Shown one piece after another: positions 1,788 through 64,000 of a DNA stretch of 64,000 nucleotides. The stretch lies in NCBI GenBank assembly GCA_903917735.1, contig CAIXBR010000093.1, positions 72,227 through 136,226 of the forward strand. Direction: 5' to 3'. Made by a program: the position numbers and the translations under genes. The stretch comes from an uncultured Elusimicrobia bacterium. Its GTDB lineage: Bacteria > Elusimicrobiota > Elusimicrobia > Elusimicrobiales > UBA9959. Under the pieces are notes generated by a model, which saw only the letters and a list, made by a program, of their open reading frames with translations, did no database searches and had not been told where the DNA came from. How positions within the stretch are numbered: the stretch's first letter is position 1; each line of letters begins with the position of its first letter.

Positions 1788-2893
1788 GAGCGGATAATTT
1801 TACCGAGTGTGCGCGCACCGCCGGCGCCGGTGGCGGACGGGCAATGGTTTACGCGGCCTTCCAGGGCCAGCCAGGCCAGCAGGGCGAAGCAGGCCGGTTC
1901 TTTAGCCAGCGGCTGCAGGCCCAGTTCGGAGCAGGACCTTACGTGTACTCCCGAAGGCAGAAGCAGGGCGGAGATATTGTCCATCAATACCGGATTAAGC
2001 GCCCCGCCACCGCTGATTATAAGCTCGCGGGTTCCGCGCGGAGCGTAAGTTCTGAAAGCGAGCGCGATGGACGCTGCGGTAAAAAGGTTCAGCGTGGCCA
2101 GCAGGCCGCCGGAACAGCGCCGGTTGAACTGCCCCGGGAAGTGCTTTTTGATAAAGCCCAGCGTGAATTCGCTGCGGTCCAGCGACTTGGGCGGCTTACT
2201 CCGGAAGAAAGGGGCTTCCAGCAGTTTATAGACTTTTGCCAGGTCGGGGGTCCCGCCGGCGGCCCAGGCGCCGTCCTTGTCATAGGCCAGTTTTCCGCCG
2301 GAGAGCTCACTGACGGCCGTATCCATGAGCGAGTTGCCGGGGCCGGTATCAAAGCCGAAGGTCTTAACGCCTTTCCCGACGAAAGCGATATTGCCGACAC
2401 CGCCGATGTTCTGCAGAGCCGCAGGCTCCCCCCCGCCGTACAGGTATTCGTCCATGAAAGGGATCAGAGGCGCGCCCTCGCCGCCGGCTGCCATGTCGGC
2501 CGGGCGGAAGTCGCAGACCACGGGGCGGCGGGTCTCCTCGGCGATGAAAGAAGCCTCGCCTATCTGCAGGGTATGACCTTTAGCTCCGGGAGCATGCCAG
2601 ACGGTCTGCCCGTGGGAGCCGATAACGGCGATATCCTTGTAGGCGATGCGGTTCTTTTTACAGAAAGCTTTCACCATGCCGGCCCACAGGCGGCCCAGCT
2701 CGAAATTAAGCGCTGAGAGCTCCTGTGCCTTCATGCCCCTGGCCGCGATTATTCTGGCCTGGAGGGCTGGCGAATAGGAATAATTGCCGAAAACTTTAAC
2801 CGTCAGGGAGCGCCCTCCGGCTTCGCAAAGCGCTATTGAAAGCCCATCGGCGGAAGTACCGCTCATCAGGCCCATTATGGTTGTCTTTTTCAT
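1784..2893 (-). CDS. anmK: Anhydro-N-acetylmuramic acid kinase
   Basis: 369 aa. N-terminal GLMSGTSADGLSIAL (AnmK MSGTSxDG motif) and ASKHA-fold length. Overlaps the NUDIX stop by 1 nt. Confidence 0.85.
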   Translation of the reverse strand: MKKTTIMGLMSGTSADGLSIALCEAGGRSLTVKVFGNYSYSPALQARIIAARGMKAQELSALNFELGRLWAGMVKAFCKKNRIAYKDIAVIGSHGQTVWHAPGAKGHTLQIGEASFIAEETRRPVVCDFRPADMAAGGEGAPLIPFMDEYLYGGGEPAALQNIGGVGNIAFVGKGVKTFGFDTGPGNSLMDTAVSELSGGKLAYDKDGAWAAGGTPDLAKVYKLLEAPFFRSKPPKSLDRSEFTLGFIKKHFPGQFNRRCSGGLLATLNLFTAASIALAFRTYAPRGTRELIISGGGALNPVLMDNISALLLPSGVHVRSCSELGLQPLAKEPACFALLAWLALEGRVNHCPSATGAGGARTLGKIIRS

Positions 2894-3351
2894 CAGTATT
2901 TTTCCACGCTGTATTTGGCAAGCCGGCCGTTCCTGTATTGGAATTTTCCGGAGAAATGTCCTCTGCGCTTCAGCAGGGGCAGAAAAAATTTATCCCCCTC
3001 CCACAGGTTCAGATGCAGCAGGTCGCGGTCCTTTATCCAGGCCAGGTTCCCCTCGTCCGAGTCCGACAACCGGCCCGTAAATTTAGAAGCGGTAAAAACG
3101 AAAACATACCAGTCCTCGCCTTTGGCGAAATCCGGGAAAGTCAGCACGCCCTTCAATACCGGAGCTTTTATTTTTAACCCGGCTTCCTCGAAGATCTCCC
3201 GCTTTACGCAGTCCTCTGGGCTTTCCCCGGGCTCAAACTTGCCACCCAGGCCGTTCCATTTCCCTTCATGTACATCATCCGGCTTCTTAACGCGGTGCAG
3301 CATCAGCGTGCGGCCGTTCTTCTTTACGTAGCAAAGGGTAGCGAGTTTCAT
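2893..3351 (-). CDS. NUDIX hydrolase (MutT-like)
   Basis: 152 aa with Nudix box GLGGKFEPGESPEDCVKREIFEEAGL (GX5EX7REUXEEXGU). Confidence 0.85.
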   Translation of the reverse strand: MKLATLCYVKKNGRTLMLHRVKKPDDVHEGKWNGLGGKFEPGESPEDCVKREIFEEAGLKIKAPVLKGVLTFPDFAKGEDWYVFVFTASKFTGRLSDSDEGNLAWIKDRDLLHLNLWEGDKFFLPLLKRRGHFSGKFQYRNGRLAKYSVEKY

Positions 3352-3356
3352 GCTTT

Positions 3357-4283
3357 CTATTTAATATCTTCAAACAGCCATGTGCTGAGATAGCGCTCGC
3401 CGGTATCGGGAAGCACTACTACTATCGTTTTGCCGGCGCTCTGCGGCCTTATGGCTATTTCCGCCGCCGCATGCATGGCCGCGCCGGAGGAGATCCCGGC
3501 CATTATCCCTTCTTCAGTCATCAGGCGGCGCGCCATCGCCCCGGCCGACGCCTCATCCACAGGTATTACTTCGTCCAGCAGCGCGCGGTCAACGTTGCCG
3601 GGGATGAAATTCGCGCCTATGCCCTGTATCTTGTGCGGCCCGGCCTTGCCGCCGGAGAGCAGCGGCGAGGCGGCGGGCTCCACGGCTACGATCCTGACTC
3701 CGGGCTTCAGTTTCTTAAGCGCCCTGGCGATCCCTGTTATAGTGCCGCCGGTGCCGACGCCGGCCACCACAATGTCCGCTTTCCCCTCTGTATCGTCCCA
3801 GATCTCCACGGCTGTGGTCCGCTCGTGAATGGCCGGGTTGGCCGGATTGGAGAACTGCCTGGGCATGAAAGCCCCCGGCATGGCGGCCAATATTTCCTCG
3901 GCCTTCGCTACCGTCCCGGCCATGCCTGCGGGACCGGGGGTAAGGACCAGCTCGGCGCCGAAAGCCTTAAGTATGCGCCGCCGCTCCACGCTCATGGTCT
4001 CGGGCATGGTAAGTATGAGCTTATACCCCCTAATAGCGCAGAGCCAGGCCAGGCCTATGCCCGTATTACCGCTGGTGGGCTCCACCACCACCGCTCCCGG
4101 TTTCAGCAGCCCGCGGTCCTCGGCGTCCTTTATCATACCGAAAGCGGCACGGTCCTTTACGCTGGAGGAAGGGTTGAAGAACTCGAGTTTGGCCAGCAGC
4201 AGGGAGGATTTCCCCGCCAGCCGGTTTATTTTTACTAGCGGTGTGCGGCCTATCAGGCCGCTCATATCTTGAGCGTATTTCAT
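3357..4283 (-). CDS. cysK: Cysteine synthase A (O-acetylserine sulfhydrylase)
   Basis: 308 aa. PLP-lysine motif [19 protein letters not shown] and [10 protein letters not shown] loops. Confidence 0.9.
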
Positions 4284-4900
4284 TTTGCGGCCAGTTCCTT
4301 TTTTAGTTCGTCGATCTCGGCCTGCACGCGGCGCATTTCCTCGCTGCAGTAGTCGGGCAGTTTATTGTGGTCAAGCTGTTGGCGGGCGGGAGCGCCGCCG
4401 CTGCCGCTGTGCGCCGGCACGCCGAAAACGGTAGTATCCGGCGGCACTTCATGCAGCACCACGGAACCGGCTCCTATCCTGGAGCGGTCGCCTATTTTTA
4501 TCGCGCCCAGTATGGTAGCCCCGGCCCCTACCACCACGCCGTTACCGAGGGTAGGATGGCGCTTCTTCTGTTCCAAAGAGGTGCCGCCAAGCACCACGCC
4601 CTGATAAAGCAGCACATCGTTGCCTATCTCCGTGGTCTCCCCTATCACCACCCCCATACCGTGGTCTATGAAGAAGCGGCGGCCTATTTTAGCGCCGGGG
4701 TGTATATCAACACCGGTCAGGAAGCGCGCGATATACGACAGAAAACGGGCCGGAAAATAGAAGCCCTTTTCCCACAGCCAGTGAGCGGCCCGGAAAAGCC
4801 AGATGGCGTGCAGGCCCGGATAGCAGAAAAGTATCTCCGCCGTGCTCCTGGCGGCCGGGTCTTTTTCAAAAACTGTCTTTATATCTTCGGTAAGGCTCAT
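4280..4900 (-). CDS. cysE: Serine O-acetyltransferase
   Basis: 206 aa. CysE pattern [29 protein letters not shown] plus hexapeptide repeats. ATGA overlap with the cysK start. Confidence 0.9.
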
Positions 4901-5112
4901 TTTTTCCTTTGGTACAGCCCGGTCAGGGCGGCTTTCCCCAGCGCATGGCCGTCCAGGTAATCTTCAGGCCTGGCCTGGCCGCCGGCGTAGGTGTCCACTC
5001 TCAGCGCGTAAAGCGTAAAAATGTAGCGGTGTCTCCCGGAAGGAGGGCAGGGCCCTAAATAGCCGGCCAGCGCGGCAGCGGCGCAAAGAGATATGAGCAG
5101 CCTTTTTGCCAT
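4897..5112 (-). pseudogene. Truncated YbhB/YbcL (PEBP) family remnant: signal peptide fused to the C-terminal motif only
   Basis: From ATG 5112 (GGAGG 8 nt upstream) the product is 71 aa: MAKRLLISLCAAAALAGYLGPCPPSGRHRYIFTLYALRVD... This carries the PEBP GPxPPxGxHRYxFxLYAL block, but the roughly 90 N-terminal residues of the domain are absent. No room remains upstream because argF starts at 5197. Confidence 0.6.
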
Positions 5113-38102: not shown

Positions 38103-38431
38103 AGAAGCACGGCCCGCCTTACGGGGTTTTTTAGCAGTGAAATTTGCCGGGAACTGACAGGGTCGGAAAGTTTCGAACGAAACTTTCCCCTCGCATAGCG
38201 AGGGCGCCTGCGGCGCGGCATACGCCCTCTCGGGCCTGACGCGCATAGCGCTTGGCCCTCGCCCCGCTATTGCGGGGAATCCTGCCGGATTAGGGCTAAC
38301 TGCGGGATCAAGCTGCCGGATCTGCCTACGCCTTTATTTTACCATTTTGCCCCCCCTAACTAAAAGCCCGAAGCGCTCTTTTTACTTTAAAGTATAAAAA
38401 ATATACACTAACCCGATAGTCTGGAGGCACC

Positions 38432-38701
38432 ATGTCACAAACCATTATAAATATCGGCTGGGCTTTGGTTTTCTCGTTAGTAGGCGGGACGGCCGGGGCG
38501 CTCCTGCTGATTTGGCTCTCTTCGCACATCCCGGCTATCTTCGATAAAATGACGCCGGACATAAACGAGGGCAAGGAAATAATACGCGGCAACCGGGCGG
38601 TAGCGGATTATTTCGGTCGGATAGTTTCAGCCGCCATACTGGGCGTCAGCATAATAATAGCGGCCGCTGTCCTTGGCGGCCTTATAGCGGCCCTCCACTG
38701 A
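38432..38701 (+). CDS. DUF350 (YjfL-like) small membrane protein
   Basis: 89 aa, 3 TM helices. The central EGKEIIRGNRAVADYFGG-type segment is characteristic of DUF350. GGAGG SD. The stop overlaps the next ATG (TGATG). Confidence 0.65.
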   Translation: MSQTIINIGWALVFSLVGGTAGALLLIWLSSHIPAIFDKMTPDINEGKEIIRGNRAVADYFGRIVSAAILGVSIIIAAAVLGGLIAALH

Positions 38702-40533
38702 TGAAATATCTGCTGCTTGCGGTTTTATTGTCGGCCCCTTTCTCCGCCGCCTGGCCAAGGGCGGGAGGCGGAGGTGGCGGCTGTTTCCCGGCCGGCACCA
38801 TCATCCAGACCACCGCCGGCGGCATCCCCATAGAAAAAATACGCGCCGACGACAGGGTGCTGGCGTTCTCCAACGACCGCATAGTGCAGGCGGACGTGAA
38901 AAATGTTTACGAAAAGGAAGACCGCCTGCTGGTGATCCGGACAGCGAAAGCCAAACTGACGACCACCTCGGAGCACCCTCTGCTGACCAGGGACGGTTTC
39001 ACCGAAGCCCGCAACATAAAAAAAGGCATGGAAGTAGCTATCCTGTCCGAAGGACACAGGGTGTGGACAAGAATAAGGTCCATAAAACCCGGCGGAGTAA
39101 GCACGGTCTATAATCTTGAAGTAGCCCCTCCCCACACCTTTATAGCCGACGGGTTCATAGTGCACAACAAAGGCGGCGGCTTTTCCGGCGGCGGCGGGTA
39201 TTACCACAGCAGCGGGTATTATGGCAGCGACGGCCTCTATCATTCCGGCAGCAGCCCCACCGAGAATTACTTTATGTTCGCGCTTATCGCCGTTGTCCTC
39301 CTGATAAAAGGCATCTCGTTCTTTTCCGAGCAGAAAGCCTCCGCCCCCAGGAAGAATTGCCTTATGGATGGCGGCTCCGTGGCGCCCAGGGCGGAGACTA
39401 CCCTCGCCATAATGAAAAGTCTAGCCCGCGGAGACGCTGCCTTCAACCCGGACGAGCTGGAAGGCTTCGTGCGCAACGTTTTCATGCGGGTCGAACTGGC
39501 CTGGCAGGCGCGGGACTACAGCACGGTGAGCGACGTCATGCTACCGAATATACTGGCCGAGCACAGCGCCCAGGTAGAGAACATGAAGCAAAGACACGAA
39601 GTGAACATGATGGACGACCTCAAGGTCCTCAAGATAGACTTCGTGCACGTGCGCTGCCCCCGGGAAAAAGAGGGGCGTTCTTTCACCGTGCTTATAACCG
39701 CTTCGGCATGCGATTACACCATAAACGAGGACAGCGATCCGGCCGCCAGCCCGGGCGCGGAAGCCGCCGCCTTCCAGGAATACTGGACTTTCTACCAGTA
39801 CAACGGGAACTGGGCCCTGGCCCGCATAGACCAGGTTGGGGCCCTGGACATTCTGGGCGCGCCCAACCTCCCGGATAAGCCCGAGAACGCGCAGGCGTTC
39901 GTCCAGCCCGGCGCCGCGGCAACTGGCTACAGCATCGAAACCGCGACGGGGATCATGTCCGCGGCCGCCGACGCCTCCGGTGCCCTGGCCGTGGCCGCGG
40001 TCACGCTGCCGGAGGCGGCCTATGCGCCGCCCCCCGCACCGGAACCGGACGGCACCTGGAACAGGCAGAAAATGGAGATAGCCGCCACGCTGGCCTTCGA
40101 GAGCGTCTACGCGGCCTGGGGCGCGAACGACAGTTCGCTGCTGAAAGGGGAGTTCGTTTCGGCGGAGGCGCTGGCCAGGCTGAATAATATCATGGAAGCG
40201 AGGAAAGCCGAGGGTTTTACTTTTGAATTCAGGAGCCTGTTCACGCGCAGGGCGGAGGTAGTGCTTACCAGCCCCGCCGGAAAGAACGATCTGAAACTGG
40301 ACGAGTTTACGGCCAGGATAACCGCCACGGCCGTGCGGGCCATGCTGCGTAACGGCAAGCCTCTTCACCGCGACGAAGCTCCGCATCCTTTCACCGAATA
40401 CTGGGTTTTCGGCCGCCAGAATGATGAGTGGAAGCTGCGCGACATCCTGCCGCGCATGGACAAGGACAACCCGGCCAGCGCACAGGACGGCGAACCGAGC
40501 CCGGTGCAGATAGAATGGTATTGGGAAACCTGA
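38701..40533 (+). CDS. Signal peptide + Hint (bacterial intein-like) domain + TM + two Tim44-like domains
   Basis: 610 aa. Hint blocks are C28-FPAGTIIQT (block A), TSEH (T89xxH92, block B) and VYNLEVAPPHTFIADGFIVHN156 (blocks F/G); the domain spans 38782..39168. It is flanked by GGGGGG and KGGGFSGGGG. TM helix at about aa 189-208. Two Tim44-type modules follow (...YWTFYQYNGNWALARIDQ and ...YWVFGRQNDEWKLRDI). Confidence 0.75.
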   Translation: MKYLLLAVLLSAPFSAAWPRAGGGGGGCFPAGTIIQTTAGGIPIEKIRADDRVLAFSNDRIVQADVKNVYEKEDRLLVIRTAKAKLTTTSEHPLLTRDGFTEARNIKKGMEVAILSEGHRVWTRIRSIKPGGVSTVYNLEVAPPHTFIADGFIVHNKGGGFSGGGGYYHSSGYYGSDGLYHSGSSPTENYFMFALIAVVLLIKGISFFSEQKASAPRKNCLMDGGSVAPRAETTLAIMKSLARGDAAFNPDELEGFVRNVFMRVELAWQARDYSTVSDVMLPNILAEHSAQVENMKQRHEVNMMDDLKVLKIDFVHVRCPREKEGRSFTVLITASACDYTINEDSDPAASPGAEAAAFQEYWTFYQYNGNWALARIDQVGALDILGAPNLPDKPENAQAFVQPGAAATGYSIETATGIMSAAADASGALAVAAVTLPEAAYAPPPAPEPDGTWNRQKMEIAATLAFESVYAAWGANDSSLLKGEFVSAEALARLNNIMEARKAEGFTFEFRSLFTRRAEVVLTSPAGKNDLKLDEFTARITATAVRAMLRNGKPLHRDEAPHPFTEYWVFGRQNDEWKLRDILPRMDKDNPASAQDGEPSPVQIEWYWET

Positions 40534-57516: not shown

Positions 57517-58554
57517 TCAGGACAGCCAGCTCTCGGTCAGCCTGACGCTTTTGGCGGAACAATTGATTTCGGCTTTTATTCCCAAAGGGAGTACCACCTG
57601 CGGATCGGTATGCCCGATGTCGAAGTTAGCCACTATCGGCAGGTCCGGCCGGCCGAATTCCTCCCCCGCCACGCGGAGCAGGGCGGCCTCCAGGTTCGTT
57701 TTTTCCTCGTCCGAATAGCGCATAGGCCGGGAAAATATCAGGCCGTTTATCCTCTCGAAGACCCCGAGCATGCCGTAATTGCGCAGCACCTGGTCTATAT
57801 ACCAGAGCGGCGGCTTATCCTCGGAAGTCTCCAGGAAAAAGATCTTGCCTTTCCAGAATTCCCGCGCCGGCCAGAATTCCGTCCCCTTCAGCATTTCGAG
57901 GACCTCCACGCAGCCGCCGAACAATTTACCCGAAACGGTCCCCGTTCCCTGAAGCCAGCGCCAGCCCTCGCTCGCGCGCAGAGGATTCACCTTTCCGAGG
58001 TTCGCCTCATTTCCCCAATCCGGATAGCCTTCGCAGTACTCTTTGTAAGGGGAATAAGCGTATCCGTCTTCCGGCTCGAACAGCATTTTCCGCACGTGCT
58101 CCTGAAAACCTGCGGGCAGGCTTTCCGCCTGGGAGAGACCGCCCATAACCGATGGCCCGTAAAAACTTGCCACCCCCTGCAGGTTCAGAAAGACGTGCAG
58201 CGTTGTAGTATCCGAATATCCCATAAGTATTTTGGGATTACCCGACACGACCCGTTTATCTAGGAAAGGCAGTATCCTGACGGAATCGTTGCCGCCGATG
58301 GAGGCTATGACCGCCTTTATTTCAGGATCGGAAAAAGCGGCGTTAATGTCCTCCGCGCGGAACCGCGGATTCGCCCGCAGGAACGCGGCGTCGCGCCTGG
58401 CCGACGGGAACTCCTTTATTTTAAGGCCCCAGCCGCGAAGGACTTTAAGACCGTTCTCGTAGACGCGCGGGAAGCGGGATGGCCCTCCCCACGAGGGAGA
58501 CACTACGGCTACGGTATCTCCGCGTTTAAGTCTTTCAGGTTTTTTATATTGCAT
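57517..58554 (-). CDS. S66 family LD-carboxypeptidase (MccF-like)
   Basis: 345 aa. LKRGDTVAVVSPSWGG, GYSDTTTLH (nucleophile Ser) and FDIGHTDP (catalytic His). Confidence 0.8.
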   Translation of the reverse strand: MQYKKPERLKRGDTVAVVSPSWGGPSRFPRVYENGLKVLRGWGLKIKEFPSARRDAAFLRANPRFRAEDINAAFSDPEIKAVIASIGGNDSVRILPFLDKRVVSGNPKILMGYSDTTTLHVFLNLQGVASFYGPSVMGGLSQAESLPAGFQEHVRKMLFEPEDGYAYSPYKEYCEGYPDWGNEANLGKVNPLRASEGWRWLQGTGTVSGKLFGGCVEVLEMLKGTEFWPAREFWKGKIFFLETSEDKPPLWYIDQVLRNYGMLGVFERINGLIFSRPMRYSDEEKTNLEAALLRVAGEEFGRPDLPIVANFDIGHTDPQVVLPLGIKAEINCSAKSVRLTESWLS

Positions 58555-58573
58555 ATAAGCTCGGTTTGTCAGG

Positions 58574-59299
58574 CTATTTTACAGCTACGAAGTAAACCCG
58601 GGTAGAAGAGTCCATAATCTCCCGCGTTTTCCCCTCTATACTCATCATTTTGTACTCTGAAAACCCCGCGGCTTTAAGATTCAGGCCGATATCGCCCAGA
58701 TCGTACATTTTCTGCTCATGAACTTCTTTTGCCCGGTCGGCGCCGGACACGATATCGATCTCAAGCCTTTTAATATTTGAGGTTTGGTCGTAATGCGGGA
58801 CCATCTCCAGCCGGACATCTTCAAACTCTTTTTTAAAAGGATTCACATAGTTCTGCGCTTGATATTTCGTCACCACATCGAAGGCGAAAACTCCGTTTTC
58901 CCTTAGGATAGCGTGAACGTTCTTAAACAGCCTTTCAATACCCTCTATATCCATAACATAATTTACGCTGTCAAAATTAGAGGTGACGAGTTCAAATTCT
59001 CCTTCGATATGGAAATCTGCCATGTCTTTCTGGCATAGAACGCATGGGATGCCGGCAGCCTTGAATTTTTGTCCCGCACGCTCCAGCATCCCGGAGGAAA
59101 TGTCCAGCCCGGTTATCTCCCATCCGCGTTCATGCATGCCAGCCAGAAAAGAGCCAGTCCCGCACCCGAGATCCAGGACCCGCGGCTTAGTCCCGATCTT
59201 GTTTTTTCCGGCAAATATCTCGTCTATCAGCCCCCAATACTTATTGGGAGTGTGGATCCGGTCATAGACCATAGAAAACTTTTTATATATTTCATCCAT
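58574..59299 (-). CDS. Class I SAM-dependent methyltransferase
   Basis: Start set at MDEIYKKFSMVYD. SAM motif I VLDLGCGTGSF and post-I DISSGML. Confidence 0.8.
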   Translation of the reverse strand: MDEIYKKFSMVYDRIHTPNKYWGLIDEIFAGKNKIGTKPRVLDLGCGTGSFLAGMHERGWEITGLDISSGMLERAGQKFKAAGIPCVLCQKDMADFHIEGEFELVTSNFDSVNYVMDIEGIERLFKNVHAILRENGVFAFDVVTKYQAQNYVNPFKKEFEDVRLEMVPHYDQTSNIKRLEIDIVSGADRAKEVHEQKMYDLGDIGLNLKAAGFSEYKMMSIEGKTREIMDSSTRVYFVAVK

Positions 59300-59668
59300 A
59301 GCAACAATAATCCTCGGCCCGCAGGGAACTGCTCCAACTATACCAAACAAAAAAGAGCCCGGCAAAACACTGCACCTGAATTTTTTATATACAATACCTT
59401 AACACAGCTAGCCGGCGCCCAAAGCGCAGGCGCGGGGGACCCAACTCCCCGGCATATCCGGGGACGGGGCGCAGATAACAGCAAACCCGTTGTCAGGTCA
59501 CTTTCAAGACCCAGCCCGTCAGCTAACCTCGCAGGCATTTGGAAGGGTGATCCAGCCGATCAGCTTCATTACTTGATTGACGGGTCTCCCGGAAGAGACT
59601 GTAACGAACTTATAAAAGCGTCGCCGCTTTCGCATGTTCATATGGACTTTTCACTTGCGAGGAGACCT

Positions 59669-61574
59669 ATGCACAGTTGTATGCCGTCTAAATACAAGCA
59701 GATCCTAGTCCTGAGCACCGCCATGCTCACCTTCATCTCATTCTGGAGAGCCTCCGCCGTGGTCCTCTGCGACATGGGCTCGAGCGCCTATTACTCCGGC
59801 GGCATAGCCATGCACGCCTCCGGCCCGGCCTTCCCATGGTACGTGCTGGCGGTTATGGTATTCGCGGGACTTATGCTGATGGTCTACGTGGAATCCTGCG
59901 ACATGTTCGTGCGCGGCGGGGTCTACAAAGTGGTGAAAGTAGCCATGGGCCCCTCGATGGCGAAGATTTCCGTTTCCGCCCTTATTTTCGACTACATGGT
60001 GACCGGGCCCATAAGTTCGGTGAGCGCCGGGCTTTACGTTTAAAGCCTGCTGGCCAGCGTCCTGCCGCTGCTGCGCGTAAATTGGCGCGTGTCCCCCCAG
60101 CTTTTTTCCGTCTTCTTCGCCGTGGCCGTTACAGCGTATTTCTGGCGTGAGAACATTAAGGGGATAGAGGAATCCAGCGACAAGAATTTAAAGATCATGG
60201 GCTTCGTCACCGTGGTCGGCGCGGTGCTGATAGCCTGGGCGCTGGTAACGGTCTATATCCGGGGCTTTAAAGTTCCGCCTTTCGACCTTCAATTAACAAA
60301 AGCATCCCTGGGCTGGATGACGAATTTCCCGTACCTACAGACCATTGGCCTGGTCGGGATCTTCATGGCCTTCGGGCATTCCATCCTGGCCCTGAGCGGG
60401 CTAGAAACCCTGGCGCAGGTCTACCGGGAGATAGAGGATCCGAAGATAATAAACCTAAAGAGGGCCGCATTAGCGATATTCCTGTTCAGCCTCGTATTCA
60501 ACGGCGGACTAACTTTCCTCGCCTCTTCCATAATCCCCCCCGACCTTATAGGGACCAAGTACCTGGACAACCTTCTCAGCGGCCTGGCGCGGCAGGCTTT
60601 CGTGGTGGCATCCGGCAGCCTTATGCTGGTGGGCCGCGGTCAACACGTCTATGGTGGGCGCTAACGGGGTGCTGAACCGCGTGGCCGAGGACGGCATACT
60701 GCACGACTGGTTCCGGCGTCTGCACCACAAATACTGCACCACCTGCCGCATAATGAACCTGGTGGCCATTATCCAGATAGCGGTCATCATACTTTCGCGC
60801 GGGGACATTTATCTTATCGGCGAAGCCTACGCCTTCGGCGTGCTCTGGAGCCTTGTTTTTATGACGCTCTCCCTTATACTTCTCCGTTTCCGGGAAGATA
60901 TGCCCAGGGATTGGATGTTCCCTTTGAACATCAGGACGGGGAAATACGATTTTCCCGTAGGCATGTACCTTGTGCTGGTCGTCCTGATAACCGCCAGCGT
61001 AACGAACCTGATGACCAAGAAGATAGCCACCGTCTCCGGCCTGATCTTCACCGCCGTGTTCTACGCCATCTTCCAGATCTCCGAGAACATGAGCAGGAAG
61101 AAAGCGCAGCTCTACCTGCAGGACTACGATTCGGAAGAGAAAATGAACATCCGCAAGGAATCGGACATCAGCCGGATCGTTCCGGAACTATCGAAGCCGA
61201 ACAGGATACTGGTGCCGGTCCGAAATCCCAACGATCTGCTGCATCTCAAGCACGTGCTAGAGACCGCGGACTACGAGACCACGGACATTATCGTACTGTC
61301 CGCCAAGATAGCCAAGGGGTTGCAGCTAGAAGGAGAGACGGGCGAGATCATGCCAGAGGACAAAGATCTTTTTACTTGCGTGGTCCTGATAGCCGAAGGC
61401 TACGGCAAGACGCTGAAGCCGCTGATGGTATTTTCCAACGATCCTTTTTATTCGATAGCGCAGGTGGCCCAGGCCACCGGCGTGTCGGAGATAGTAATGG
61501 GGGTTTCAGGCTCTACCGGCGCCGAAGTGCAGCTTGAGCGCCTCGCCATGGCCTGGGGGCATGCTGAAAAATGA
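59669..61574 (+). pseudogene. APC-family amino acid permease with C-terminal Usp-like domain, disrupted by an in-frame TAA and a 1-nt frameshift
   Basis: Three consecutive ORFs read as one about 634-aa permease. TAA at 60041..60043 is in frame (...SAGLYV*SLLASVLPLL...). Skipping one base at 60631..60635 restores ...GSLMLVGAVNTSMVGANGVLNRVAEDGILHDWF. The C-terminus RILVPVRNPNDLLHLKH...VSEIVMGVSG is UspA-like. GAGGAG SD before ATG 59669. Confidence 0.7.
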
Positions 61575-61995: not shown

Positions 61996-62607
61996 CTAGC
62001 TTTCAATAGAATGCTGGAATATTGGAGCAAATAGCCCGAGGACAATTGACACAGTTAAAACTACAATACCTGCCACACTCGCAGAATACCAAGAAAGCTG
62101 GGTAAAAGGATTAGTCGGGAGAGTAAATGCCCAGGCAACGTAGGCAAATGCCGCCGCAAACATTTCCCAAAGCGGCCATTGCTTGGGTTTCCAGGGGATA
62201 TTCTTGTTGGCGGCCTTTATTTTCCCTGCAAAGACCAGCCATACTACTGCTGGAGTTGCAAACAAAAACACGTTAAAGATGAACCACCCATTTCGTATGT
62301 CTTGACCCGACTGATGTAGCGCGGCTAAAACAGCAACATAAAGAGTTAGGATTTCCGTTGGGATATATGCCGCAACTACCTGCAGGGCATTCGTCGCATT
62401 ACCAGCAGCTTTGGCGACAGAATTGGTAGCCGCAGGCGCAGCGTCTTCAAGAACATTCAGAAGCTCATGACCTATGATATTTGGGATGCTACTAGGAGGG
62501 GTTGATGCAGCCTTTGCTATATGGCCCAAATTCTTAGAAACCTTACCGGCCGGCGCAAAGTCAGTGCGCCGTGAAATTGCTACATTTGACATAGAACTTA
62601 TACTCAT
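61996..62607 (-). CDS. Hypothetical membrane protein (low-GC island)
   Basis: 203 aa. Soluble Ala/Ser-rich N-terminal region of about 75 aa, then about 4 TM helices. AGGAGGG SD. Low GC. Confidence 0.5.
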   Translation of the reverse strand: MSISSMSNVAISRRTDFAPAGKVSKNLGHIAKAASTPPSSIPNIIGHELLNVLEDAAPAATNSVAKAAGNATNALQVVAAYIPTEILTLYVAVLAALHQSGQDIRNGWFIFNVFLFATPAVVWLVFAGKIKAANKNIPWKPKQWPLWEMFAAAFAYVAWAFTLPTNPFTQLSWYSASVAGIVVLTVSIVLGLFAPIFQHSIES

Positions 62608-63125
62608 GATTTACCCTCCTAGGATTAAGCTTCTTACATAAACATATTTACTGACACACCCCTAAGCCAATAGCGCATCTGCTTGCATTCTATAAAGGAA
62701 CTTGGTTAGTCATATCTTTTAATGGATATACTGCCCAGGTTAGCAGAAACGCCCCCCCGCAAAACACCAACAACACCGCCTCCGCATGCAAAAAAGGCGC
62801 AAAAACATTTGAACCTCCAGAAAGATATATCGAAAACAGCAATCAAGAAAAAAACAAGCAATTGTTTAATAATATAACCTCAACTATCACATCCTAGGCT
62901 GTAACAATAATATACCAAACATAAAGGCCCCGGCAAAATTGTCAGGGCCTTTAGGAAATTTTCTCCCCCAACGGAACACAGCGGGGTAACTATTTAACTA
63001 TTATTAGAGATATTCGGCCAGGATAGGCGAGAATTAAAGTCGCTATAGTTATACAGAAAGCGTCTTAACTATCCTTTCCACAAGTTGCAACAGATCTTTA
63101 CTGCTGTTTTTGCACGCATCGCCAG

Positions 63126-63578
63126 ACTGTATTGAGCTGGCGGCTGTCCAACACGATGGAGAGCGATTTCTGCGTGGAGGCGCTTGAAGAAAGCCTGGCG
63201 CTGTATGGGAAGCCTGAAGTATTCAACAGCGACCAGGGCAGTCAGTTTACGAGCGAGAGTTTTACAAAAGTACTCATTGATGAAAAAAGTGTTAAAATCA
63301 GTATGAACGGTCGCGGAAGGGCTTACGACAATATTTTCGTGGAACGGTTGTGGCGGTCTGTGAAGTACGAAGATATATTCTTGCATCAGTACCAGAATAT
63401 CCCAGAATGCAAGGTAGGCTTAGGCAAGTACTTCAGGTTTTATGACATGGAGCGGCTGCATCAGGCGCTGGACTATAAAACCCCACGGGAAGTATATTTG
63501 GAAGGAATGAAGAAGCGCGGCGTCAGCAGCAGGGATAGCAAAGCAGTCCACCTTAAGAAGTGCCTGCAACTGGTCTAG
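63126..63578 (+). mobile_element. IS3-family transposase remnant (C-terminal part of the rve integrase core only)
   Basis: ...SWRLSNTMESDFCVEALEESL..., FNSDQGSQFTS (second catalytic D) and NIFVERLWRSVKYE (catalytic E). The N-terminal HTH/orfA region and the first D are missing. Homology stops at about 63126. Confidence 0.8.
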
Positions 63579-63656
63579 TCTATCCCGACCACCTCAGAGG
63601 AAAGCAATATAGATCCGTCCTGGCTGACCGCCTCCAACACCGCTGGAAAGTCTAAC

Positions 63657-64000
63657 TTATGGCTGACCTCCTCCCTGCTGGTCCATCTCTATTTTTGCTA
63701 GAGAGTAAATGGTACCGTCAGCGGCCTGATAATGTTCGATAATCTGTGCCATGGAAATTTCCCCGCTTTTAAAGGTAGTCCGGATACGTTCCACCCTCTC
63801 ATCGCCCTCCGCAGTGTGAGTAGTGGTCCGGGTGCTTTTTGTTGAAGTGCTAAAACCATTCTGAATATCAGTCCTGGCCCGGTTATCAGCCGTGTCACGC
63901 CTTAAATACTCATCGCTGATAGTTGGTGGAGCACTCCCCACCCCATAAAACGCATGTGTGCCGCTATTCTTAAAAGCCCCGCCACCCTTAAGAACCCATT
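63657..64000 (-). CDS. Hypothetical protein, partial (frame stays open to the window end)
   Basis: The ORF track gives 63657..63941 from a GTG. My own translation shows the frame is open upstream to 64000 (...WVLKGGGAFKNSGTHAFYGVGSAPPT...), so the gene probably starts outside the window. Confidence 0.4.
   Translation of the reverse strand, partial: WVLKGGGAFKNSGTHAFYGVGSAPPTISDEYLRRDTADNRARTDIQNGFSTSTKSTRTTTHTAEGDERVERIRTTFKSGEISMAQIIEHYQAADGTIYSLAKIEMDQQGGGQP

Follow-up and report, generated by a model that had tools for sequence, protein, structure and literature searches.

Why would a bacterial membrane protein carry a domain of the intein type directly behind its signal peptide? The question is posed by a 64,000-nucleotide stretch of DNA from an uncultured Elusimicrobia bacterium (contig CAIXBR010000093.1, positions 72,227 to 136,226 of the forward strand; hereafter the window). 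Two open reading frames were found there, one for an 89-amino acid protein (window positions 38432–38701) and one for a 610-amino acid protein (38701–40533), both on the + strand, as are all other features located below in the window. From its open reading frame, Pfam and NCBIfam matches, and an AlphaFold model, the larger protein is a precursor composed of a signal peptide, a short N-extein, a Hint domain, a Lys residue, a Gly-rich tail, a single transmembrane helix, and two Tim44-like domains. The motifs that the original prediction had listed for this architecture are all present. Our tentative answer to the question, held with somewhat less than even confidence, is that the Hint domain is a domesticated self-excising module, resembling the A-type bacterial intein-like (BIL) domains, in the exported tail of a Tim44-like inner-membrane protein that is partnered with a DUF350-like protein.

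A BIL-like Hint domain in a tail predicted to be exported

A predicted Sec signal peptide occupies residues 1–17 (MKYLLLAVLLSAPFSAA; 38701–38751) and shows a Lys at position 2, a hydrophobic core, and the sequence S-A-A; in the Tim44-like family as a whole an AxA-type site lies ahead of a conserved Arg. It is followed by the N-extein WPRAGGGGGG (residues 18–27; 38752–38781), which contains the conserved R(A)G(n) motif. The Hint domain comprises residues 28–156 (129 amino acids; 38782–39168) and opens with Cys28 (Cys1; 38782–38784), the predicted thioester nucleophile, which lies in the sequence CFPAGT and is the sole Cys ahead of the transmembrane helix. Block B, T89-S-E-H92 (38965–38976), is conserved among the units of the family. 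The C-terminal stretch reads VYNLEV...FIVH155-N156, where His155-Asn156 (39163–39168) is the predicted site of Asn cyclization, and it continues into K157-GGGFSGGGGYYHSSGYYG. Lys157 (39169–39171) occupies the +1 position and is assigned to the inserted unit from the +1 counts and the Hint-less alignment given below. The signal peptide and the positive residues after the transmembrane helix predict that the Hint is exported to the periplasm.

PT-HINT (PF07591) was the only Hint model in Pfam to match above its threshold (residues 34–156; score 35.2 bits, cut-off 27.7); the matches to Intein_splicing, Hint_2, and Hint (PF01079) were below theirs. Both the N- and C-terminal intein motifs were matched in the NCBIfam scan, the latter being the splicing region TIGR01443 (25.3 against a cut-off of 15.6, residues 136–156). 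In the AlphaFold model residues 28–156 are all-beta with a predicted local distance difference test score (pLDDT) above 90, and Foldseek placed the domain onto mini-inteins and BIL domains with target-normalized TM-scores of 0.77–0.90 among the top matches. In sequence, the solved structure nearest to the Hint is 2LWY, a BIL domain of C. thermocellum that matches over its full length with an E-value of 2.8e-8, and the RecA, DnaX, and DnaB mini-inteins come next. Together with the results for the C-terminal half of the protein described below, these matches support the Hint and Tim44 folds that had been predicted.

The domain has Cys1, the TxxH motif, a terminal His-Asn, and Lys rather than Cys, Ser, or Thr at +1, and there is no endonuclease domain within its 129 amino acids. 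This is the pattern of the A-type BIL domains, as the original prediction recognized, and 2LWY is the best sequence match in the PDB. With C. thermocellum BIL4 (2LWY), to which it is 29% identical in the structural alignment, the window Hint shares Cys1, TxxH, the terminal His-Asn, the lack of Cys, Ser, or Thr at +1 and of an endonuclease, a length of about 130 amino acids, and a location in the exported, variable part of a bacterial protein. Reviews place BIL domains in hypervariable regions of nonconserved, often secreted, bacterial proteins. The segment that holds the window Hint is exported and low in complexity; in the family described here, however, the host, the insertion site, and the flanking residues (Gly-1 and Lys+1-Gly+2) are conserved across phyla. 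As many as five units stand in stable arrays, separated by linkers of 2–7 residues, and the Hint co-diverges with its host. We place the window Hint with the A-type-BIL-like domains, in an arrangement that is new, conserved, and in some relatives tandem.

Two other classes of Hint domain were compared. With the PT-HINT domains the window Hint shares the above-threshold match, and Lys after His-Asn is common among the nearest neighbors of the class. Unlike those domains, it is N-terminal, right behind the signal peptide, and is followed by a transmembrane helix and two Tim44-like domains. No toxin domain was found downstream of it and no immunity-like gene was identified, the next gene being a convergent SUI1 gene; with no toxin domain downstream, a polymorphic-toxin module was ruled out. 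The Hog domain of Hedgehog proteins resembles the window Hint in its Gly/Cys-Phe junction (slashes mark junctions here and below), in the weak match to Pfam Hint (PF01079), and in being secreted or exported. In contrast to Hog, the window Hint ends in His-Asn followed by K-G(n), has no sterol-recognition region, and is preceded by an N-extein that is not a signaling domain. A Hedgehog-type autoprocessing domain was accordingly rejected on the terminal His-Asn with K-G(n) directly after it.

Relatives with zero to five Hint units

The 610-amino acid protein (P0001, 100% identical to the window copy; P and L numbers denote proteins and loci in our sets) has 245 detectable relatives. Most of the named ones are from Elusimicrobiota metagenome-assembled genomes, and others are labeled Planctomycetota/Phycisphaerae and Thermodesulfobacteriota. 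A genome scan found the system in a cultured gammaproteobacterium, Legionella massiliensis LegA (NZ_CCVW01000002.1; L035, 2201–5077), where a gene for a 91-amino acid DUF350-like protein precedes one (2489–5077) for an 862-amino acid protein with three Hint domains and the layout RGGGG/C..HN/KG/C..HN/KGGG/C..HN/KGGGG, a transmembrane helix, and two Tim44-like domains. The search for the same architecture and the same DUF350 linkage in other genomes, which had been suggested as a check, was thus successful in several phyla, with linkage in 33 of 34 loci.

The number of Hint domains in the relatives varies from zero to five, in tandem, and the single Hint of the window lies at the reduced end of this series. 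The tandem layout is SP-A/RGGGG/C…HN/KG/C…HN/KGG(G)/C…HN/KGGG/C…HN/KGGGF…-TM-Tim44x2 (SP, signal peptide; TM, transmembrane helix), and the linkers between units consist of Lys and one to six Gly. Units at different positions of one protein are about 30% identical, and units at the same position are 42–62% identical across phyla; by this comparison the tandem units are ancient, position-specific paralogues. The window Hint groups with the last-position class.

Cys1 is present in 231 of the 238 family units, the block-B Thr in 233, and the Glu/Asp in 226; the block-B His and the terminal His-Asn are found in all 238. The Cys1 and His-Asn residues singled out by the original prediction are therefore near-invariant in the homologues. 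In the Cys1-bearing units of Tim44-like hosts the +1 residue was Lys in each of three counts (231/231, 140/140, and 360/360), and Gly was found at the -1 position in 129 of 133 units of a representative set. The N-extein has its Arg in 138 of 139 family proteins and is exactly RGGGG in 81 of the 139, across phyla; the Gly run is about 5 to 11 residues long in the single-Hint forms of Elusimicrobiota. Two units, P0329 unit 2 and P0281 unit 1, have Ser in place of Cys at position 1 and retain Lys+1, which points to the existence of an oxyester variant of the module. P0340, a 670-amino acid protein of the Tim44 family, has Trp where all of its relatives have Gly (ARGW/C, HNKGW/C, HNKWWSSS, and HWWD for PGD). 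The pattern would fit an organism that reads UGA as Gly (code 25, Gracilibacteria/Absconditabacteria) translated with UGA as Trp, and if so the Tim44-like family reaches those lineages.

The Hint-less relatives establish the boundaries of the unit. In the syntenic orthologues L004/P0058, P0047, P0048, and P0055, exactly C…HN-K is missing and the tail runs unbroken as RAGGGGG-GGGFSGGGGYY..., in agreement with the earlier proposal that the Hint interrupts a continuous Gly-rich segment. The neighbors of the L004 gene are those of the window gene (BipA, ABC-F, the 89-amino acid gene, Tim44-like, SUI1, MatE, PAP2, AdoHcyase, Exo_endo_phos, and HrpB). In the alignment, Hint-bearing and Hint-less forms alike conserve RAGGGG on one flank and GGGFSGGGGYYHSSGY on the other, and the R(A)G(n) motif also opens the tail of the Hint-less orthologues. 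Lys is absent from the Hint-less tails. Because the indel is exactly C…HN-K, Lys157 belongs to the inserted unit, and because the flanks are conserved, the product of excision and joining would be the Hint-less protein plus one Lys.

In a neighbor-joining tree built on p-distances, which is approximate, the Hint-less forms are nested within the single-Hint clade of Elusimicrobiota, and the host part of the Hint-bearing P0017 is 83% identical to that of the Hint-less P0047. The scattering of Hint-less forms among Hint-bearing ones indicates that the Hint was cleanly lost more than once, the number of independent losses being as approximate as the tree, and that the protein works without it. Over 1485 pairs from 55 single-Hint proteins, the identities of the Hint and the host part are correlated with a Pearson coefficient of 0.83, and the mean identity is 0.62 for the Hint and 0.58 for the Tim44 part. 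Divergence of the Hint keeps step with that of the host and is no faster, which implies selection on function. The GC content at third codon positions (GC3) is 0.68 in the Hint, 0.76–0.78 in the Tim44 domains, 0.73 in the linker and transmembrane segment, and 0.63 in the DUF350-like gene. A foreign composition of the Hint was considered and set aside, as the value is only mildly low and near that of the DUF350-like gene, with no evidence of recent transfer. These comparisons indicate that the Hint is vertically inherited under purifying selection and is domesticated rather than mobile.

Sporadic presence and absence among close orthologues, with exact boundaries, is also what an ordinary selfish class-1 mini-intein would produce, one that moves, splices in the canonical way, and maintains itself by invasion. 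The window Hint has the N- and C-terminal motifs of inteins, its fold is closest to those of the mini-inteins (DnaB, gp41-1, and RecA, with target-normalized TM-scores of 0.82–0.90), and it shares with them blocks A, B, and G and the exact indel relative to element-free orthologues. However, its +1 residue is Lys and never Cys, Ser, or Thr in any of the 360 units, it has no endonuclease domain, and it is inserted in a low-complexity tail rather than at a conserved active site. It shows no sign of mobility, its divergence follows that of the host, its tandem relatives are ancient paralogues, and its GC3 is only mildly lower than elsewhere in the gene. This explanation is very improbable, and a selfish mobile intein was rejected on Lys+1, the missing endonuclease, and the co-divergence.

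A further set of relatives retains a degenerate Hint. In the clade of P0039-44 and P0049 the signal peptide runs directly into GG-LPAGT without Cys1, Lys+1 is now Tyr or Arg, the Gly runs are gone, and the block-B Thr is lost in five of the seven sequences; His92 and His-Asn are retained and the Hint evolves at the rate of the host. Among representatives at 50% identity, P0297 keeps Cys1 with Ala at -1 and Tyr at +1, P0302, P0339, P0270, and P0272 are without Cys1, their +1 residue being Tyr, Arg, or His, and P0289 has lost every catalytic residue (Cys1, TxxH, and His-Asn) and is still a recognizable Hint. Since Lys+1 and Gly-1 disappear with Cys1 while His-Asn is kept, they appear to go with the thioester half-reaction and not with Asn cyclization. 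The Hint, and probably its C-terminal cleavage, would then be of value without the thioester.

One could go further and regard the Hint as a noncatalytic periplasmic domain that remains on the membrane protein as a structural or binding ectodomain, with intein-like residues that are inherited and unused. The Cys1-less variants, in which the Hint evolves at the host rate, and P0289 would suit such a role. The near-invariance of Cys1, the block-B His, and His-Asn over phylum-level divergence is not expected from it, and neither is the clean loss of the Hint in several lineages. We regard a purely structural role as improbable.

A search with the Hint alone among 1.84 billion representatives returned 5362 Hint proteins with E-values of 1e-3 or lower, of which 288 were at 1e-10 or lower. 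Among the best 150 of these proteins, the +1 residues of the units in hosts without a detectable Tim44 domain were Lys (86), Cys (37), Thr (15), Ser (8), and others (26). Part of the 86 Lys cases are probably truncated fragments of the Tim44 family, about 40 of them having Gly at both -1 and +2. Lys+1 also stands before Pro, Asn, Ser, Thr, or other residues in unrelated hosts, including secreted proteins with PKD or Ig domains, a STAND NTPase, and large repeat proteins. The survey indicates that Lys+1 is a trait of this BIL/PT-HINT subclass and is not unique to the Tim44-like family; what sets that family apart, on the same evidence, is a conserved host in which the Gly/Lys-Gly context is fixed and the Hints can form tandem arrays. 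A comparison of Hint columns between units with Lys and units with Cys, Ser, or Thr at +1 (496 units) revealed no charge-complementary or otherwise convincing co-varying position, and the strongest difference, F/W at residue 100, probably reflects phylogeny.

The SP-RGGGG/C…HN/KGG module with a low-complexity tail also occurs on other membrane-anchored proteins. P0328 and P0342 (435–487 amino acids) carry a single module on a different membrane protein, and P0303 and P0350 (about 600–630 amino acids) have three Hints and no signal peptide on a Ser-rich protein that is anchored C-terminally. Other arrangements were also seen. Many tandem, enlarged Hints stand ahead of a collagen-like Pro/Gly tail in P0290 (1285 amino acids) and P0327 (624 amino acids), P0322 (1438 amino acids), which is large, secreted, and built with Ig- and cadherin-like domains, has two terminal Hints, and one Hint lies at the end of the STAND NTPase P0373 (843 amino acids). 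Seven proteins (P0279, P0295, P0308, P0311, P0321, P0333, and P0337) from among the Hint neighbors have two to four Hints with Cys+1 and recurring flanks (…NDNW/C…HN/CGG… and GCSW/C…HN/CSAY). They have the look of one host family that carries either several canonical inteins or Cys-rich repeats.

Proposed excision, with ligation or cleavage

For the self-excision that we tentatively favor, the following sequence of events is proposed. The 610-amino acid precursor would be exported by the Sec pathway, its signal peptide removed, and the Hint folded in the periplasm. Cys28 would attack the carbonyl of Gly27 in an N–S acyl shift to give a Gly thioester, and cyclization of Asn156 would break the Asn156-Lys157 bond. 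The amine of Lys157, either the freed alpha-amine, as proposed for the C. thermocellum BIL, or the epsilon-amine, would resolve the thioester, joining RAGGGGGG to KGGGFSGGGG... and releasing the Hint. The mature protein would have a short, disordered periplasmic tail rich in R-G(n), like that of the Hint-less orthologues, and its transmembrane helix and two cytoplasmic Tim44-like domains would work with the DUF350-like protein at the membrane. In the relatives the same reaction would take place at two to five tandem units.

There are precedents for the individual steps. With no nucleophile at +1, BIL domains still cleave and are able to splice (PMC7664689, PMC5874633), and the Tetrahymena BUBL BIL2 domain gives an isopeptide with the epsilon-amine of Lys (PMC8616854). 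The comparative data make self-excision in the periplasm the most likely activity of the Hint, and ligation is slightly favored over hydrolysis by the conserved N-extein, the exact indel, the tracking of Cys1 by Lys+1, and the BIL and BUBL precedents. The conservation of RGGGG and its Arg, and the recurrence of the same motif in the Hint-less tails, are hard to explain if the N-extein is discarded. The original prediction had suggested that a tiny peptide or thioester is released or transferred in the periplasm; regeneration of the tail would fit the comparative data at least as well.

If the thioester were hydrolyzed, maturation would consist of cleavage only, either at both junctions or at Asn156-Lys157 alone, giving a mature protein that begins at Lys157 and freeing the N-extein and the Hint or Hints as by-products or functional products. 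The K-G-G-G terminus left by the C-terminal cut would resemble the R-(A)-G-G-G terminus of the Hint-less forms. PT-HINT domains, which the window Hint matches above threshold, are thought to free downstream domains by autoproteolysis, and in the Cys1-less lineages the retention of His-Asn in a conserved Hint fits C-terminal cleavage as the core activity. Set against this, exactly RGGGG in so many of the family proteins would be unexpected of a discarded peptide, and the loss of Lys+1 with Cys1, despite the retention of His-Asn, speaks against a need for Lys in Asn cyclization. We regard cleavage alone as a serious but doubtful account of the locus.

Several points weigh against the excision and ligation proposed here, and the first of them also speaks for cleavage. 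According to reviews, the products of BIL domains are predominantly cleaved rather than spliced. The case for processing of the 610-amino acid precursor is itself purely computational. The Cys1-less lineages conserve the Hint and have no N-extein at all, so that ligation and the R-G(n) terminus must be dispensable and the Hint must have a value independent of the thioester. The loss of Lys+1 together with Cys1 probably rests on few independent events, in one to three lineages. Lys+1 is also common among the nearest Hints in unrelated hosts, where the flanks are not Gly, so that it may be a general trait of the subclass, aiding Asn cyclization, for example, rather than a ligation nucleophile; elsewhere it is found in contexts of the cleavage type. 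Finally, the upkeep of three to five ancient tandem units merely for removal is left unexplained; free Hint domains or activated [R/K]-G(n) peptides are possible as released products.

The thioester might instead be the purpose of the domain, with Gly passed to an amine other than the +1 alpha-amine. Conceivable acceptors are the epsilon-amine of Lys+1, in an isopeptide of the BUBL kind, the amine of another molecule, for cross-linking or attachment, and the mini-extein's own amine, which would give cyclic peptides; a diketopiperazine could form from a K-G linker that has the Asn cleavage site on one side and the Cys thioester on the other. Lys+1 and Gly-1 are invariant, as this chemistry would suggest, and the mini-exteins between tandem units have position-specific lengths (K-G, K-G-G(G), and K-G-G-G). 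The junction of Hedgehog proteins is G/CF, and the same junction is found here. The window Hint also matches in structure the BIL2 domain of the Tetrahymena thermophila BUBL locus (6Y75/6TMM), which forms Lys isopeptides, and both systems have serial BIL domains in one polypeptide. The N-exteins of the BUBL BIL and of the Tim44-like-family Hint both end in Gly-Gly. In contrast, BUBL is eukaryotic and cytosolic with ubiquitin-like exteins, and in the Tim44-like family the exteins are [R/K]-G(n) peptides of 2–10 residues and Lys157 is a putative nucleophile. Only 5–10 residues, and no ubiquitin-like or other cargo, lie ahead of the first Hint; a Gly run of variable length ill suits a defined peptide product; the Hint-less and Cys1-less orthologues are viable; and no Hint column co-varies with Lys+1. 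Transfer to another amine is therefore unlikely as the purpose of the domain.

The most specific form of this idea, for which the chances are equally slim, is that the invariant Gly-1/Lys+1 pair is the mark of a bacterial, extracytoplasmic, amine-directed splicing, in which the epsilon-amine of Lys+1 would stand in for the canonical Cys, Ser, or Thr and trap the thioester of Gly in an isopeptide at up to five tandem Hints. If this were true, the products would be a branched Lys/Gly tail, cross-links to other molecules, or released activated or cyclic [R/K]-G(n) mini-peptides, and the family would use an ATP-independent conjugation chemistry that is otherwise documented for the Tetrahymena BUBL locus alone.

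The Tim44-like host and its DUF350-like partner

Downstream of Lys157, a Gly/Tyr/Ser-rich periplasmic tail (residues 158–186; 39172–39258) is predicted to be disordered, with pLDDT values below 50 over residues 159–185, and aligns with the Hint-less tails. The single transmembrane helix (residues 189–210; 39265–39330) is given by a hydropathy peak and by a helix over the same residues in the model. Tim44-like domain 1 (residues 224–379; 39370–39837), predicted to be cytoplasmic, and Tim44-like domain 2 (residues 455–583; 40063–40449) are separated by an Ala/Pro-rich linker (residues 380–454; 39838–40062) with a GC content of 0.74 and pLDDT values below 50 over residues 404–449. The C-terminal motif PVQIEWYW (residues 601–608; 40501–40524) consists of invariant alignment columns and was used as a search pattern for the family.

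Pfam Tim44 (PF04280) matched the protein in two stretches, the first at residues 239–378, with 76.7 bits against a cut-off of 29.6, and AlphaFold modeled the two domains as alpha+beta folds. When the Tim44 half was searched by sequence against the PDB there was no match, and a fold search was needed. With a separate model of the C-terminal half (predicted TM-score, 0.72), Foldseek found the C-domains of human and yeast Tim44 (2CW9 and 3QK9) and chain d of the mitoribosome large subunit, which we take to be mL45, a Tim44-like protein. The two domains thus share the NTF2-like, membrane-binding fold of the Tim44 C-domain and mL45 and resemble the bacterial COG4395 proteins of the Tim44 family; JGI labels relatives as predicted lipid-binding transport proteins (Tim44 family). 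Unlike these proteins, the host described here has a duplicated domain, is fused to a transmembrane helix and an exported Gly-rich tail, and has a DUF350-like gene as its partner. Judging by its fold and COG label, the Tim44-like/DUF350-like pair may act at the cytoplasmic face of the inner membrane.

The 89-amino acid protein is encoded behind a GGAGG ribosome-binding site (38423–38427), 5 nucleotides upstream of the ATG at 38432, and has hydrophobic segments at about residues 8–30 and 57–89. Its gene overlaps that of the Tim44-like protein in TGATG (38699–38703; ...CAC TGA TG AAA), where the stop codon and the ATG share one base, and the overlap suggests translational coupling. The window copy had no Pfam hit at E-values up to 1, no match to DUF350 even at values up to 10, and nothing in NCBIfam. 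Its orthologues score 23–24.6 bits on PF03994, for which the cut-off is 26, and several relatives have a precomputed PF03994 match or are named DUF350/YjfL by NCBI or JGI. From these orthologue scores the protein, which has two transmembrane segments, is best described as a divergent, single-repeat DUF350-like (YjfL-like) partner. DUF350/YjfL proteins are known from envelope-stress operons of the PspA type (PMC11237479). YjfL itself has four to eight transmembrane helices, whereas the window protein consists of a single two-helix repeat, with no PspA gene nearby. It has 132 homologues, of which the 120 listed are 57–100% identical to the window copy; in an aligned set the orthologues are 55–84% identical, and the copy in L003, a locus with four Hints, is still at 55%. 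It is more conserved than its Tim44-like partner.

The original prediction treated the two genes as a unit. The linkage holds: among 34 distinct family loci with upstream sequence, from several phyla, the DUF350-like gene adjoins the Tim44-like gene in 33. It lies directly upstream on the same strand in 32 and directly downstream in one (L033, which is Hint-less; 3777–4115), and it is absent from one, L006 (P0113), which keeps the synteny and has neither a Hint nor an RAGGGG tail. The DUF350 label stands by way of the orthologues only. A coupling of DUF350 to the Hint in particular was rejected; the linkage is the same with zero, one, three, and four Hints, so the partner belongs to the Tim44-like host.

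Other neighbors are inconsistent between loci. A gene for a BAX inhibitor/YccA-like protein (Bax1-I) adjoins the Tim44-like gene in three loci of two distant lineages (L001, 7817–8479; L002, 2501–3163; L003, 9301–10029), and a LemA gene (L007, 4035–4592) stands ahead of the DUF350-like gene in a locus from Thermodesulfobacteriota; neither occurs at the equivalent place in the window. A promoter and terminator scan of the intergenic region 38247–38431 gave nothing informative, and PADLOC found no match to a defense system. The sole Rfam match in the window is a full-length cyclic di-AMP riboswitch (RF00379; 59400–59552; 62.9 bits against a gathering score of 38). The GC content in 2-kb bins is 0.58–0.65 across most of the window, about 0.52 in bins 10001–12000 and 58001–60000, and 0.46 in the right-end bin 62001–64000.

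No described function for this architecture was found, in keeping with the original prediction: literature searches on Tim44-like proteins with Hint domains or with DUF350, on bacterial Tim44-like domains, and on tandem Hint/BIL arrays returned nothing relevant. The family would be a clear case of a Hint/BIL domain that is kept by its host rather than persisting as a parasite, with vertical inheritance, purifying selection, a fixed site, and arrays of up to five units. The natural series of proteins with no unit, one unit, a Cys-less unit, and two to five units offers a way to ask what BIL domains are for, and the invariant Lys+1 makes the joining of BIL exteins without a nucleophilic side chain, through the alpha- or the epsilon-amine, directly testable. 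A compact, apparently extracytoplasmic, self-processing module of 129 amino acids with Gly/Lys junctions could be of use in protein ligation and self-cleaving tags. The Hint also provides a first handle on a widespread and uncharacterized inner-membrane pair, the double Tim44-like protein and its DUF350-like partner, for which L. massiliensis is a cultured host.

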